Assembly: GCA_003345555.1 (NCBI GenBank)
Contig: PRDJ01000034.1
Coordinates: 1-20,896 of the forward strand
Direction of reading: 5' to 3'
Source of the DNA: Candidatus Thorarchaeota archaeon
Lineage (GTDB): Archaea; Asgardarchaeota; Thorarchaeia; Thorarchaeales; Thorarchaeaceae
Length of the DNA: 20,896 nucleotides
Within the stretch, counting starts at the first letter, position 1; each line of letters starts with the position of its first letter. The notes under the pieces were generated by a model. The model was not told where the DNA came from and did not search any database. It worked only from the letters and a program-made list of their open reading frames with translations. Made by a program: the position numbers and the translations under genes. Below are positions 15,855-20,896 of the stretch, in pieces.

Positions 15855-17213
15855 ATGGATGCATGTCCTGAGCTCGAACGCCTAGTCTCGATGGACACTG
15901 TCAGTGATGCCAAGGCCGGCAAGCAGACTTCACCGCAGTGTCCGCAATACATCAAAGAGAAGCTCGAGACCTTGGGTTTCACATCGGAGATTCTGGTCTC
16001 GAACGGAGTACTGACCACCTTCAGTCGCAGGGGATACGGCGCCTTCAAGGTACTTTTCTTAGCACACTTCGATGTCGTTCCAGTTGGCGAGGGGTGGAAA
16101 ACGAACCCCTTTGTGCTTAATGTGCAGGGCGAAAAAGCATACGGACGGGGATCGTGCGACGACAAGGGGAACATTGTGTCGTTGCTCCTCTTGGCTGAGA
16201 AGCTCAGCATGTTCGAGCCTCCTTGTACGGTGATGATTGCAGCTACTGGGGATGAGGAACTGGGAGGAGAGAACGGCGCTGGCTACCTTAGAGGATATTT
16301 GATAAAAAACGGACTGTTTCCTGACTACGTGGTTGTGGCTGATGGCAATGGGCAAAAGGTGATACATCGTCGGCGCAATGTCCTGCCAACTACCATCAAG
16401 GTCAAACAGACGCTGGCTCGAACAAGGGGGCAGATCGAGAAGGTTCGGTTTGTTACAGACACGTTCGAGACCGAGACGCGTCATTCAGCATACTTTCGAC
16501 CCGGTGTTGATCGTCATTCGATGCTGGCTGCTTCCAAGTACCTCGATCTCAACCCACAGGTCGTTGTCCGTGGCATCCGAGGAGCATTCCTGAAGACGAA
16601 CGTGATTCCCGATTGGGTGGAGCTGGAGATAGTGCGACCTGCTCCATCTGCTGATGAGGTTGAATATGATAAGGCGTTGACGGGTCTATTCAAGGCCCTG
16701 CTACCGATGTCGAATGCTCAGTTTCCTACGAGGTATTCTGATTTGGGAACCTTCGTCTCTCCAAACTTGCTCTCCCTAGAAAGCAATCTGTGGACCCTAT
16801 ACTGTGACGTGAGAGCGATGACCAATGATAAAGAATCTGTGCGGGCCGCTTTCGAGTCCTCACTGAAGGGTAAGGTCGATATCTTCGCACTTGAAGTGGC
16901 AGCTGGCAAAGGTTTCGTTGAAGCGAAGGTCGACTCAAAACTGATTCGTGCTGCCACATGGGCACTCGAAAAGGAAGGCATCAAGTACACAATCGGAGAG
17001 GGGTACGGCGCATCAGATTCCCGGTACTTCTCTGATGCGAGAGAGGGCCTCTTCGATTTCGGTCCCCGGGGTGATAATGTGCATGGGGCAAACGAGTGGG
17101 TGTCTCTCACTTCGATCGAGGAGAACGCGGCTTTCTACCAGACCTTGCTTGAGGTGCTTTCGCGCGAGAAGCCGGTCTCGGGACGGTCTGTACCGGGCTC
17201 ATCCCGACCTTGA
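15855..17213 (+). CDS. M20 family metallo-hydrolase (ArgE/DapE/dipeptidase-like)
   Basis: LAHFDVVP, GRGSCDDKG, DEELGG, VADG, GASDSRYF and HGANE. ATG 15855 is preferred over TTG 15783. Confidence 0.9.
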   Translation: MDACPELERLVSMDTVSDAKAGKQTSPQCPQYIKEKLETLGFTSEILVSNGVLTTFSRRGYGAFKVLFLAHFDVVPVGEGWKTNPFVLNVQGEKAYGRGSCDDKGNIVSLLLLAEKLSMFEPPCTVMIAATGDEELGGENGAGYLRGYLIKNGLFPDYVVVADGNGQKVIHRRRNVLPTTIKVKQTLARTRGQIEKVRFVTDTFETETRHSAYFRPGVDRHSMLAASKYLDLNPQVVVRGIRGAFLKTNVIPDWVELEIVRPAPSADEVEYDKALTGLFKALLPMSNAQFPTRYSDLGTFVSPNLLSLESNLWTLYCDVRAMTNDKESVRAAFESSLKGKVDIFALEVAAGKGFVEAKVDSKLIRAATWALEKEGIKYTIGEGYGASDSRYFSDAREGLFDFGPRGDNVHGANEWVSLTSIEENAAFYQTLLEVLSREKPVSGRSVPGSSRP

Positions 17214-20200
17214 CTCTGAGGTCTTCAATCTCCCACTCCTTTACATGCTGGAAAGACTTCCAAGCCGTCTTTGACTCGGGACCGACGAGTTGAGTCTTGC
17301 TCGCCCTGGTCTCTGCAGCCAAGTGGTCCGAGAACATCCTCGCAAGCTCCACCGATTCGCTGTCTGAGAACTGAAGCACTAGGCTTATTCTCTGTTCCAC
17401 GTTGAGGTCGAGCTCCTTTCTCATGACCTGAACACGCCTGATCACGTCTCTGACCAGCCCTTCGGCCTCCAGTTCTCTGGTTCGAGTCACGTCCACATAG
17501 ACCTTGCCCACCTTGCTCTCAGCATAGCTCAGATCGTCCGGAAGGCTTTCCTCAAACTCAATATCTTCAGGTTCGAGCACAAACTTTTCACTGCCCAAGG
17601 TGACAACTGCTTTGCCTTTCTGGAGTTCAGTTCTCAGCTTCGACGTGTCCGATTCCTCGAGGGCGGCAAGGATCTTCTTCATTCCATCTCTGTATTTCGG
17701 TCCCAAAGACTTGAAGTTCGGCTTCGCCACAAGACGGACGAAATCAGGCACTACGTCAGACTTCAGAACAAGAAACTCACGCGTATTGAGATCTTCCTCC
17801 AAGAGTGACTTGAGATTCTCGGCGCGCCTTGCTGTATCCGGTGAGGAAGGTATTAGGATTACCTTGCTTACTGGGTGCCGCAGTTTGACACTCTTCTTGT
17901 TCCTTGCATAGGATGAAGCGCTCCTCAGCTCTTCAAGGACGTGGAAGGCTTCCTCCATCTCAGGGTCGGTCAGGTCTTCGTCAGGCTCTGGCATGTCTGT
18001 CAGATTGACTGATTCGGGAAGCTTGTCAGAGAAACGCACGAAAAAGCATGTATGCAGCTTCTCAGTGAGGAAGGGGGTAAAGACATTCAGGCATCTCATT
18101 ACGGTAAAGAGGGTATAGAACATCACGTCGTATGCCATGAGCTTCTTTGGGTCTTCGCTCTCCAGCCACACTCTCTTCTTTACGAGTGGCAAGTATACTC
18201 TGCTGAAGTCCTCGGTTATGAAATCTAGGAGTACCCTTGCAGCCTGATGATAGAAGTACTGCTTCATGTTGGAATGAAATTCCTTCAACACATACTGGAG
18301 TCGCGATACTAGCCATCGATCCTCCAATCCAGAACTCTTGACCTTTCTCTCGAATCTCCCTATATCGAACCTGTACTTGTCGAGGTCCATGTAAGTCTCT
18401 GCAAAGAGAAATATGTTCCAGAGGACATCGATTTTCTTCCTTGTAAGTTCGATTTCGGTCGGACAGTAGTTGGTAGCTGACCATGGGGCAGACTTGCTTA
18501 GAACATAGAGCCTGAAGGGGTCAGCTCCTATGGCCTTCAGTACATCTTTCATCCAAACGACATTGCCCCTAGACTTGCTCATCTTGCCGCCGTCTTCATC
18601 GAGAACATGGCCTTGGCTAACACAAGCTTTGAAGGCCACATTATCGTGCATTACGACGGACGTATACAGGAGGCTATAGAACCACCCCCGAGACTGATCC
18701 ACAGCCTCCGTTATGAAATCGTACGGGAAGAGACGCTCAAACAAATCCCGGTTCTTCAGGTAGTCCACACCAGCTGTGTGGGCCATGCCTGAGTCGAGCC
18801 AGCAGTCGACTACGAACTGTTCACGATGCATCATGCCGCCACATTTGTCGCATCGAAGGACCACCCGGTCTACCCAAGGTCTATGCATCTCAAAGACATC
18901 GGGGAATTCGATTGCGCGCTGTTTCAGCTCCTGCCTAGATCCCACGACGGTCTCTGCCTTGCAGCTATCACAGACCCAAACAGGCAAAGGAGAACCCCAT
19001 ATTCTGGACCGCGAGACACACCAATCGTCAGCACTTGCCACCCAGTCGCCAAAGCGCCCAGTGCCCGCCCACTCGGGTGTCCATTCCACCCGCTTGTTTT
19101 CCTCCAACAGCCTTTCTCGAACGGTCTCCATTTTCAGGAACCATTGTGTCTTATCGGCAAGATAGACAAGAGGAGTATCACATCGCCAGCAATGGGGATA
19201 CTCATGTTCCACAGTTTCCTCATGTATGAGCAGTCCTTTCTCTTTCAGCATTGCTGGTACTATTCGATTTGTGTCGAATACTAACTGGCCGCTGAACATG
19301 GGAACTTCATCCGTGAAGAGACCTGATGACGTGACTGGACAGAACACAGGGACCCCGAATTCCCTGCCCACGTTGAAATCGTCTGGCCCGAATCCAGGCG
19401 CGGTATGCACGAGGCCGGTGCCTTCCTCGACAGTGACATGTGTACCGGTGACAACAGCATGCATGTACTTCTCGTCATGCTGTCGATGCCACTCTATTTC
19501 ATCCCGGAAAGGATGTTCATACTTCCACCCCAGCATCTCCCTGCCCAATACTGTCTCCACGACCTCGTATGAGCTGACCCCGGCTTTCTGCATGACAGTC
19601 TCAATGAGATTCTCGACCAGCCACCAGTACTCATCTCGCACTCGAACCTTTACGTACTTGTGGTCCGGATGAACAGAAACCATCTCGTTGGAGACCAGTG
19701 TGAAGGGGGTCGTTGTCCATATGATCAGGAACTCGTTGTCTTTCCCTACTAGCCTGAACTTGACGTATATTGATGGATCGACCTTCGTCTTGTAACCCTG
19801 TGATACTTCATGAGCTGAGAGTGCAGTCACACACCGAGGACACGTAGGATTTACTCTGTAACCGCGGGCCAATAGTCCCTTTTCATTCGCAGTCTTCAGG
19901 AAGTACCAGACGTGCTCTATGTAGTCATCTCGACGTGTCTCGTATGCGCTCGGATAGTCGAGCCATAGTCCCAGCCGAACGGAGTCCTTTACCCAGCTCT
20001 TCAGATAAGAATCGACCAGTTCTTTGCACTTCTTCACGAACAGGTCCATACCTATCGTCGACTCGATTTGACGCTTTTCGGCTATGCCTTCGTTCTTTTC
20101 CACCTCGAGTTCAACGGGCAGGCCTTGCATATCCCACCCCGCGCGCCTCCAGACGTTGTAGCCTTTCATGGTCATGTAACGAATCTGGACGTCCTTTATG

Positions 20201-20385
20201 GCCCGTCCTCTTCCGTGGCCAACATGCATGAACCCATTCGTGGTTGGAGGGCCCTCGAGAAAGTTCCAAGCTGGTCCTGAATGTCGATACTCGACAGTCT
20301 TCTCGTAGATGTGATTCTTCTTCCAGAAGTCTAGGACCTCAGATTCGAGTGCCTGTGGATCGTAGCGCTTCGGTAGGTAACTCAT
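17107..20385 (-). CDS. ileS: Isoleucyl-tRNA synthetase (archaeal/type 2-like)
   Basis: GPPTTNGFMHVGH (HIGH motif), GWDMQGLPVE, WTTTP, GTGLVHTAPGFG, YPHCWRC, DWCVSRSRIWG, DQSRGWF and KMSKSRGN. SD GAGGAG at 20397-20392. Confidence 0.97.
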   Translation of the reverse strand: MSYLPKRYDPQALESEVLDFWKKNHIYEKTVEYRHSGPAWNFLEGPPTTNGFMHVGHGRGRAIKDVQIRYMTMKGYNVWRRAGWDMQGLPVELEVEKNEGIAEKRQIESTIGMDLFVKKCKELVDSYLKSWVKDSVRLGLWLDYPSAYETRRDDYIEHVWYFLKTANEKGLLARGYRVNPTCPRCVTALSAHEVSQGYKTKVDPSIYVKFRLVGKDNEFLIIWTTTPFTLVSNEMVSVHPDHKYVKVRVRDEYWWLVENLIETVMQKAGVSSYEVVETVLGREMLGWKYEHPFRDEIEWHRQHDEKYMHAVVTGTHVTVEEGTGLVHTAPGFGPDDFNVGREFGVPVFCPVTSSGLFTDEVPMFSGQLVFDTNRIVPAMLKEKGLLIHEETVEHEYPHCWRCDTPLVYLADKTQWFLKMETVRERLLEENKRVEWTPEWAGTGRFGDWVASADDWCVSRSRIWGSPLPVWVCDSCKAETVVGSRQELKQRAIEFPDVFEMHRPWVDRVVLRCDKCGGMMHREQFVVDCWLDSGMAHTAGVDYLKNRDLFERLFPYDFITEAVDQSRGWFYSLLYTSVVMHDNVAFKACVSQGHVLDEDGGKMSKSRGNVVWMKDVLKAIGADPFRLYVLSKSAPWSATNYCPTEIELTRKKIDVLWNIFLFAETYMDLDKYRFDIGRFERKVKSSGLEDRWLVSRLQYVLKEFHSNMKQYFYHQAARVLLDFITEDFSRVYLPLVKKRVWLESEDPKKLMAYDVMFYTLFTVMRCLNVFTPFLTEKLHTCFFVRFSDKLPESVNLTDMPEPDEDLTDPEMEEAFHVLEELRSASSYARNKKSVKLRHPVSKVILIPSSPDTARRAENLKSLLEEDLNTREFLVLKSDVVPDFVRLVAKPNFKSLGPKYRDGMKKILAALEESDTSKLRTELQKGKAVVTLGSEKFVLEPEDIEFEESLPDDLSYAESKVGKVYVDVTRTRELEAEGLVRDVIRRVQVMRKELDLNVEQRISLVLQFSDSESVELARMFSDHLAAETRASKTQLVGPESKTAWKSFQHVKEWEIEDLRVKVGMSPVQTVPRPASRAKAPQARSGRKPRSPRSK

Positions 20386-20496
20386 TGTAGTCTCCTCTCA
20401 TTCAGTATCAACGGTGCGAAGGAACCAGAAGCTGTCTCCATGAAATCATAGGTGAGGATACTGGCTACGCCTGTCGGTGACTTGACGAAGACTCTG

Positions 20497-20517
20497 CTAG
20501 ATGATTTGGCAATCCAT
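20497..20517 (-). CDS. Putative ileS leader peptide MDCQII
   Basis: ATG GAT TGC CAA ATC ATC TAG, preceded by SD AGGTGAG (20531-20525) with 7-nt spacing. Translation is not demonstrated. Confidence 0.45.
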   Translation of the reverse strand: MDCQII

Positions 20518-20563
20518 CCTGTCGCTCACCTATCTGGGCCTGTGGTCCAAACACTCTTGCCCC

Positions 20564-20572
20564 TTTTAAAAA
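20564..20572. promoter_or_regulatory. TATA-like element TTTTAAAAA, plausibly the ileS promoter and possibly bidirectional
   Basis: It is the clearest TATA-like run in the intergenic region. On the - strand it predicts a TSS near 20541-20545, just upstream of the uORF SD. Confidence 0.45.
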
Positions 20573-20738
20573 GCTTAGGCTAGCATGAATTGTCCATCGA
20601 CTGACGGCAGTTCTGAGAGCAGCTTCCTTCAGGCGCTGTCATACGTGATATTGGCGGGACACGCGACCAACGTTTAATTGCCAAGTACGGTCGGTCCAGC
20701 GTTGATTCAATCTCGACACAGCTGCAAGGTGAAAACCG

Positions 20739-20896
20739 ATGAGCTCTCTCGAAGGCAAATCGTTGGACGCGCTCGTTGATATGGTGTTGAACGTACTAAC
20801 TCAGGACTCACTAGGCCTATGGAGCGCTGTTCGAAAGAGAATGGATGCTGAAGGACCCGCCAAAGTGAGGGCGGCCTTTGAGAAAGGTGCTTCGCG
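20739..20896 (+). CDS. 5' part of an unknown protein (MSSLEGKSLDALVDMVLNVLTQDSLGLWSAVRKRMDAEGP...), running off the window
   Basis: SD AAGGTGA at 20726-20732; open frame to the window end (52 codons). Confidence 0.5.
   Translation, partial: MSSLEGKSLDALVDMVLNVLTQDSLGLWSAVRKRMDAEGPAKVRAAFEKGAS

Follow-up and report, generated by a model that had tools for sequence, protein, structure and literature searches.

The region upstream of ileS in this archaeal contig raises the question of whether a six-codon ORF (MDCQII*) located in the mRNA leader could act as a sensor of charged tRNA-Ile, or whether it is a product of chance. In this study, we analyzed the window, by which we mean the whole stretch of 20,896 nt from contig PRDJ01000034.1 of a Candidatus Thorarchaeota archaeon, and compared its ileS leader with those of related genomes. 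The initial annotation had described a TATA-like box, a Shine-Dalgarno (SD) sequence with 7-nt spacing and a 6-codon ORF at 20517-20497 in front of ileS, all of which were reproduced exactly from the sequence. The features of the locus are as follows.

20590..20595, minus strand: GGACAA, the window version of a GGTCAA element (alignment consensus G.CAA), ~8 nt upstream of the BRE
20564..20582, minus strand: promoter, consisting of the BRE-like TAGCCTAAGC and the TATA box TTTTTAAAA; TAGCCTAA..TTTTTA is near-invariant in 19 genomes
20572-20564, minus strand: TATA box TTTTTAAAA, with TAGCCTAAGC directly before it
20538..20545, minus strand: predicted transcription start zone, ~26-30 nt 3' of the TATA box, the usual archaeal spacing
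20525..20533, minus strand: 5' strand of the closing helix P0, AUAGGUGAG, which includes the uORF SD AGGUGA
20531-20525, minus strand: AGGTGAG carrying the SD of the uORF (core AGGUGA, 20531-20526), with a 7-nt spacer to the ATG
20497..20517, minus strand: uORF ATG GAT TGC CAA ATC ATC TAG (MDCQII*), as read from the sequence; an early frame-0 stop is present across 61 leaders
20503..20505, minus strand: putative sensor codon 5, Ile (AUC); AUC or AUU throughout ileS leaders
20500..20502, minus strand: codon 6, a second Ile (AUC), which is lineage-specific (Ile in 11 of 61 leaders)
20448..20456, minus strand: 3' strand of P0, CUCACCUAU, anti-SD-like, pairing with 20533-20525
20426..20434, minus strand: small hairpin CAG-CUU-CUG with the U-rich motif yUUCUG, which recurs in type-A leaders
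20392..20399, minus strand: SD of ileS, GAGAGGAG; AGAGG is conserved here in the alignment
17107..20385, minus strand: ileS, isoleucine--tRNA ligase, 1092 aa (Pfam tRNA-synt_1 and Anticodon_1; NCBIfam TIGR00392)

The product of the gene behind this leader is a genuine IleRS, scoring 829.6 bits against NCBIfam TIGR00392 (cut-off 621) in agreement with Pfam. The window promoter fits the TATA/BRE profile and spacing of its own genome. About 33 nt lie between the TATA box and AGGTGAG, and the uORF ATG is found 55 nt past the first T of the TATA box, within the peak of TATA-to-start-codon distances observed genome-wide (40-60 nt); the end of the uORF is 111 nt from the ileS ATG at 20385. The intergenic region (20386-20738) is common to the ileS promoter and a divergent gene, which starts at 20739 on the plus strand, at a distance of 353 nt from ileS, and continues past the window end (20896); its first 52 residues (20739-20896) had no Pfam match. 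A scan of 20300-20896 on both strands against Rfam returned zero families at E<=10, the T-box included. The folding of the window leader was no better than that of shuffled sequences, either for the whole leader (z +1.2) or for the 5' domain (z -0.6). Judged on the window alone, both the uORF and its folding are indistinguishable from chance.

The comparison with relatives shows that the six-codon ORF is far from a chance occurrence. We collected ileS upstream regions from 19 family genomes (IleRS identity 67-89%). All 19 regions contained the same arrangement: the TAGCCTAA..TTTTTA promoter, ~30 nt, AGGTGA, 5-9 nt, and ATG GAT TGC CAA ATY. In the larger set of 86 Thorarchaeota genomes, the block SD-ATG-GAT-YRY-CAA-ATY was present before ileS in about three quarters of the genomes or more. 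The pattern GGATGGATNNCNAAAT was matched in 63 of the 86 (with approximately zero matches for the reversed-pattern control) and the pattern GGATGGATTGYCAAAT in 67 (control near zero), and variants of codon 3 (CAC, TAT, CGC and AGC) brought in additional genomes; those family genomes that gave no match were mostly incomplete. The block occurred once per genome, every exact site being located 125-200 nt 5' of ileS, and the motif was unique within the genome of the window. It was also kept before a second type of IleRS, which is 37-41% identical over the N-terminus and still belongs to TIGR00392 (693 bits). This second type (1124 aa) is found in several Thorarchaeota genera, and the mini-ORF there always reads MDCQIH*; its longest leaders carry an extra SD-led ORF of 12-24 codons, whose TGA lies at the ileS SD. 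The exact motifs were restricted to the Thorarchaeota family. The 16-mer matches in four genomes outside the family, among them three exact ones, were located within unrelated coding regions and were dismissed as chance occurrences.

Reading-frame statistics were obtained from 61 unique Thorarchaeota ileS leaders, with the following distribution.

Codon 1: ATG in 61/61
Codon 2: GAT in 61/61
Codon 3: TGC 44, TGT 10, CAC 3, TAT 2, AGC 1, CGC 1 (n=61)
Codon 4: CAA 59, GAA 2 (n=61)
Codon 5: ATT 41, ATC 20 (n=61), i.e., Ile without exception
Codon 6: variable; Ile in 11/61 via ATC, ATT or ATA
Stop (TAG, TAA or TGA): codon 7 in 48/61, and within 16 codons (<=16) in 61/61
Remaining two frames: median 44 and 22 codons to a stop
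Spacing from GGTGA to ATG: 5-9 nt across the 61 leaders

The SD AGGTGA was conserved in at least 90% of ileS leaders, and AGGUGA is complementary to UCACCU at the 3' end of Thorarchaeota 16S rRNA. In type-B leaders the stop codon is placed in a hairpin loop, where UAA or UAG is kept and the next loop bases vary. The early stop, the constrained spacing and the ATG are, as far as sequence comparison can tell, signatures of a translated ORF. Thus, when orthologous leaders were checked for a conserved SD and a short ORF keeping Ile, the answer was positive in all 61 unique leaders, and neither the uORF nor its Ile codon was found to be absent from any of them. Two parts of the initial annotation need to be qualified. 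It had pointed out two tandem Ile codons, and the first is universal (61/61) whereas the second is Ile in only 11 of the 61. Its proposed check was for other codons that vary while Ile stays; Ile at codon 5 is indeed kept using both ATT and ATC, but GAT and CAA are fixed.

The pattern of substitutions is informative in a further respect. Neither GAT nor CAA was ever replaced by its synonymous codon, and the codon preceding Ile was always NAA. Because these synonymous sites are fixed, an RNA-level or codon-context constraint is superimposed on the ORF. At codon 3 the nucleotide pattern Y-R-Y was kept while the amino acid was swapped non-conservatively (C, H, Y, S or R). Together, the comparison points to a constraint on M-D-x-Q-I that acts at the RNA or codon level rather than at the level of the peptide. 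Since GAT and CAA are fixed and the pre-Ile codon is always NAA, part of this conservation is left unexplained by a simple hunger-codon model.

Some observations were made on the 16S rRNA itself. In two genomes (G002 and G012) Thorarchaeota 16S rRNA ends with ...GCGGAUGGAUCACCUCCU. Just 5' of the 16S anti-SD, 8-12 nt are the same as the leader motif GGAUGGAU(UGCC/CACC), rather than its complement. In two further genomes (G007 and G003), the 16S 3' region has a ~30-nt insertion between GGAUGGA and AUCAAUCACCUC, for which an expansion segment, an intron and an assembly feature are all conceivable.

If codon 5 reports on the amino acid of the synthetase encoded behind it, a similar leader before another synthetase gene should carry another codon. 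This comparison proved decisive. The 12-mer AAGGATGGATTGC had exactly one other intergenic occurrence in the same genome, ~110 nt before leuS, whose product (973 aa) is a leucine--tRNA ligase (NCBIfam TIGR00395, 1011 bits). This sister motif lies outside the window, on the minus strand at C24:23211, and reads ATG GAT TGC GTT CTC AGG TCA TAG, i.e., MDCVLRS*. Codon 5 is Leu (CTC) at the position that holds Ile in the ileS leader. The leuS leader of this genome is arranged in the order GAGTGAGCC, AAGG, mini-ORF, TATA-like motif (conserved) and finally GGCTC, the pairing partner of GAGCC. A leuS leader of the form M-D-x-V-L, with 0-4 further codons before the stop (total length 5-9 codons), was present in each of the 20 family genomes examined. 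Its putative sensor codon, CTC or CTT, was the fifth, except in two of the 20, where an in-frame insertion moves it to the sixth. Two genomes of a single genus start with TTG and carry CTT CTT; other variants were an in-frame 3-nt insertion giving ATG AGG TAT TGY GTT CTC (MRYCVL; two genera), and CTT CTC (Leu-Leu) in the closest relative. When 46 good genomes were searched with a pattern for SD plus scaffold, ileS-type and leuS-type sites were recovered, and otherwise only a few scattered unrelated matches. The chance of a cognate codon 5 in both leaders would be ~0.05 x 0.10, or about 0.005. At the sequence level, the exchange of Ile for Leu matches the prediction of a cognate-codon sensor.

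This arrangement was not general among the synthetase genes. The valS leaders had no mini-ORF, and no comparable leader was present at eleven other aaRS loci of the same genome, which were located with four Pfam families. The valS genes have a conserved short leader of a different kind: the promoter TTGTCCATAAsCCTTTTAGGAG is followed by the hairpin CCUUG-CUGACAU-CAAGG, which overlaps the SD, and the start codon is TTG. Family-wide, the promoters of ileS, leuS and valS share a GGTCAA-like element located about 8-13 nt 5' of BRE/TATA; it showed no enrichment among upstream regions genome-wide. It is a candidate for a common transcription-factor site of the three branched-chain aaRS genes.

To cover the rest of the phylum, 60 ileS upstream regions from other families were extracted using protein anchors. 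SD-led mini-ORFs with the core GAT-YRY-(C/G/A)AA-ATY were found before ileS in at least 10 further families, and in two more the same core precedes the second ileS copies; examples of the encoded peptides are MDREIH*, MYRRQI*, MRDYQIQ..., MRDRKI..., MDKRQI* and MRDHEII.... The strict core GAT-YRY-VAA-ATY was present on the sense strand of 13 of the 60 regions, compared with 0 on the antisense strand and a mean of 0.2 in shuffled sequences. Before leuS, mini-ORFs ending in (V/I)-L(-L) were detected in five of the nine other families sampled (e.g., MRDCILY*, MWRIYVLH*, MRGSIL..., MGYCILLR* and MRVGVLL...). The distance from the start to the sensor codon differed between families by whole codons, and the 12-mer was lost in other Asgard families while the mini-ORF and the sensor codon were kept. 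The largest family sampled, together with several others, had short ileS leaders without such an ORF. In two genomes the second ileS copies are preceded by tandem mini-ORFs, MRDHEIIPPN* and MRNHEIRN*, which are ~100 nt apart before one ileS gene and both carry the ...H-E-I core.

With regard to RNA structure, most leaders have a 5' segment, comprising the 5' flank, SD, AUG and first codons, that is complementary to a stretch 45-80 nt downstream. The mini-ORF is thus predicted to be enclosed in a long irregular hairpin domain, which would be ~90 nt long in the window. The window helix P0 has 9 bp, pairing AUAGGUGAG (20533-20525) with CUCACCUAU (20456-20448), and appeared in the MFE structure as well as in the centroid. 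Across the leaders, the 5' strand paired more strongly with the downstream region of the same leader than with dinucleotide shuffles (mean z -2.0, with 57% of leaders at p<=0.05; p 0.10 for the window leader alone in the same duplex-energy test). The own partner strand was also better than the partners taken from other leaders, by 2.1 kcal/mol (permutation p 2e-4). When all 61 leaders were simply aligned with MAFFT, RNAalifold recovered only a trivial 3-bp stem, because variable loops misalign the 3' strands; a subgroup alignment was therefore needed. In a subgroup of 14 sequences, a three-helix model had 85% of its cells paired, compared with 31-38% when it was slid by 1-3 columns. Every change in the SD-helix core of this subgroup (columns 15-17) was wobble-compatible (GC/GU or UA/UG), and the inner helix containing the stop codon showed a few double changes. 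Compensatory pairs were identified by eye, including GGAGAG/CUCUC in ileS and GAACC/GGUUC in leuS.

Other pairings were considered as well. A local hairpin of GGUGA with the codon-3 region (U-YRY-C) fits the Y-R-Y pattern but was ranked below the long-range P0 helix, because it is uncompensated in four leaders with a GGAGA SD. The distal strand of P0 is also able to form local hairpins. The closing helix is shared by the leuS leaders (GAGCC/GGCUC), which in addition have an inner hairpin, GAGUCC-[UUUAUAGM]-GGACUC, whose conserved loop is TATA-like and lies 62 nt before leuS. This loop could be either an RNA element or a second promoter, and the latter would complicate a purely cis-acting RNA model. 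In type-B ileS leaders the closing helix is directly followed by U4-6, and a hairpin with U5-6 immediately behind it was observed only in these leaders; the U4-6 behind the closing helix has the geometry of a terminator. The window leader has no oligo-U terminator, and the window and the other type-A leaders have only a yUUCUG/yUUUCUG motif, 44-50 nt before the ileS ATG. When the footprint of a stalled ribosome was forced to be single-stranded in 49 leaders, the mean difference in accessibility of the ileS ribosome-binding site was -0.01 (5 up, 7 down), and there was no consistent change at the U-rich motif. Simple SD sequestration is therefore unlikely, because this constrained folding gave no consistent change at the ileS ribosome-binding site.

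These observations are best accounted for by a translated uORF that senses the supply of charged tRNA (Ile before ileS, Leu before leuS) via one sensor codon, a reading to which we assign a probability of roughly 0.75. From the pattern of conservation and complementarity we infer how translation, stalling, an output step and its direction might be connected. The ileS mRNA would begin ~25 nt before the MDCQII* frame, and a ribosome loaded on the nascent leader would either read the six codons and depart or, if Ile-tRNA is scarce, pause at codon 5 (AUC or AUU), the presumed sensor of charged tRNA-Ile. A paused ribosome would cover the strand containing SD and AUG, so that the domain stays open. 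After a ribosome has terminated behind the six codons, the same strand could pair with the anti-SD-like strand 70-80 nt downstream, and the domain would close. The open or closed state would then set the amount of full-length, translatable ileS mRNA, most likely because transcription ends prematurely, or the RNA is processed, at the U-rich tract that follows the domain; in type-B leaders, the stalled ribosome itself may act as the antiterminator. The leuS gene would be under the same device with a Leu sensor codon. By analogy with bacterial aaRS attenuators, starvation probably results in more synthetase. Several features speak against the model. A single cognate codon is conserved, rather than a run of several as in classical attenuators (Leu-Leu occurs in a few leuS leaders); the fixed GAT and CAA and the pre-Ile NAA go beyond a simple hunger-codon model; the window leader has no oligo-U terminator and folds no better than shuffled sequences; and constrained folding gave no consistent effect on the ileS ribosome-binding site.

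Several alternatives have to be weighed against this reading. That the six-codon ORF is functionless, a possibility the initial annotation had left open, would agree with the window statistics, in which the ORF and the folding look like chance, but conservation throughout the family and at the level of the phylum, together with the leuS counterpart, contradicts it and leaves it a negligible probability. A DNA operator for a transcription factor just 3' of the transcription start is hardly more credible. The motif does occupy ~+20 to +40 from the predicted start, a frequent binding zone of archaeal repressors, it contains a short TTGnCAA palindrome, and ileS, leuS and valS share the separate GGTCAA element in their promoters. 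However, the G-U wobble changes in the partner strand preserve pairing only at the level of RNA, the ORF features are strand-specific, and valS has the GGTCAA element without the motif. An operator RNA, in which IleRS/LeuRS or a common RNA-binding protein recognises the AGGAUGGAUUGC hairpin domain and the cognate codons are either coincidental or identity elements of the synthetase, deserves somewhat more attention, although we regard it as unlikely. It would account for an almost invariant 12-mer common to two aaRS leaders, for the 8-nt identity of this 12-mer with the 16S rRNA 3' region GGAUGGAU, and for the structured domain. It leaves the signatures of start, stop and SD unexplained, as well as the extra cognate codons (Ile at codon 6 in 11/61 and Leu-Leu in several leuS leaders), and the coincidence of cognate codons at position 5 in both leaders (~0.005); moreover, other Asgard families drop the 12-mer yet keep the mini-ORF and the sensor codon.

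The remaining alternative is a T-box-like riboswitch that functions without translation, in which a specifier codon (AUY in ileS, CUY in leuS) pairs with the anticodon of uncharged tRNA, and SD, AUG and stop are incidental parts of helices. Such a device would explain why a single codon at a fixed place, on a common scaffold behind AGGAUGGAUUGC, is swapped between two aaRS genes, why its third position is C or U only, as a G34 anticodon predicts, why SD and AUG lie within conserved helices, and why nucleotides are conserved at synonymous sites. Against this, no Rfam family, T-box included, was matched at E<=10, and inspection by eye revealed neither a conserved UGGN nor an antiterminator element. 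In addition, in-frame stops of varied type and position are present in 61/61 ileS and 20/20 leuS leaders, while the other frames stay open far longer, the SD spacing is held to 5-9 nt, variants with TTG or GTG starts and an in-frame 3-nt insertion exist, and in other families the distance between start and sensor shifts by whole codons. We therefore consider direct tRNA binding improbable, slightly more so than protein binding. No tRNA-Ile gene was among the 15 tRNAs found by aragorn in the genome of the window, which is incomplete.

Among known systems, the translated charged-tRNA sensor proposed here is functionally closest to bacterial aaRS attenuators and, in its modular logic, closest to the T-box. 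Attenuators have been predicted for leuS and trpS of Streptomyces, and Actinobacteria have translational T-boxes before ileS (PMC1262725). Like E. coli pheM-pheST and the Streptomyces leuS/trpS attenuators, the Asgard leader has an SD-led ORF with codons cognate to the downstream synthetase, and the proposed sensing of charged tRNA by a ribosome would likewise be cis-acting. The bacterial attenuators have runs of cognate codons, an explicit antiterminator and a Rho-independent terminator, whereas the Asgard leader has a single fixed sensor codon. It also differs from them in its archaeal host, in the use of one scaffold for two aaRS genes, in the lack of a clear terminator in the window, and in that the SD and AUG of the mini-ORF are themselves one strand of the putative regulatory helix. 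T-box riboswitches are similar in logic only: a common scaffold serves different aaRS genes, and its single specifier codon corresponds to the amino acid of each gene. They bind tRNA directly and are untranslated, whereas the Asgard leader shows strong ORF signatures, lacks Stem I and the T-box sequence, and has no T-box match in Rfam.

A ribosome stalled on a short ORF that occupies an RNA strand or the entry site of a factor is also known from ermC-type translational attenuation and from tnaC/Rho. In ermC and tnaC the signal is an antibiotic or free tryptophan, acting via a specific nascent peptide, whereas in the Asgard leader it would presumably be the supply of charged tRNA. Archaeal transcription termination uses oligo-U. 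Where tnaC uses Rho, the Asgard leader would use FttA, which binds U-rich nascent RNA (PMC11616081), or the oligo-U route. Similarity to the uORFs of eukaryotes is found in another respect. Conserved-peptide uORFs occur in eukaryotes, e.g., the MAGDIS hexapeptide uORF of AdoMetDC, which is likewise a conserved uORF of about six codons near the mRNA 5' end of a regulated gene. In contrast, the Asgard uORF is SD-led, its codon 3 varies freely among C, H, Y, R and S, and it is the cognate codon rather than the peptide that is conserved.

In our literature search, no leader peptide or attenuator was described for an aminoacyl-tRNA synthetase of any archaeon, and archaeal gene regulation is described as acting almost entirely at promoter recruitment (PMC8448881). 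As judged from comparative sequence evidence, the leader very probably represents the first leader peptide in archaea that senses the supply of charged tRNA. On balance, we also favor, with less confidence than for the sensor itself, the broader view that ribosome-read 'specifier-codon' leaders form an ancient and modular class in Asgard archaea, with one conserved scaffold that consists of SD, start, (R)-D-x, a context codon and one sensor codon. Such a class would be a translation-based counterpart of the T-box, as well as the first cis-regulator sensing charged tRNA or amino acids and the first leader-peptide attenuation in Archaea. A simple sequence signature is available for annotating these leaders in Asgard genomes. 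If the proposed reading is true, archaea couple the translation of a leader to the expression of the gene behind it, and the locus would provide a mutable test object for transcription-translation coupling and FttA/oligo-U termination in archaea. It would also mean that the lineage closest to eukaryotes has control of the uORF type.
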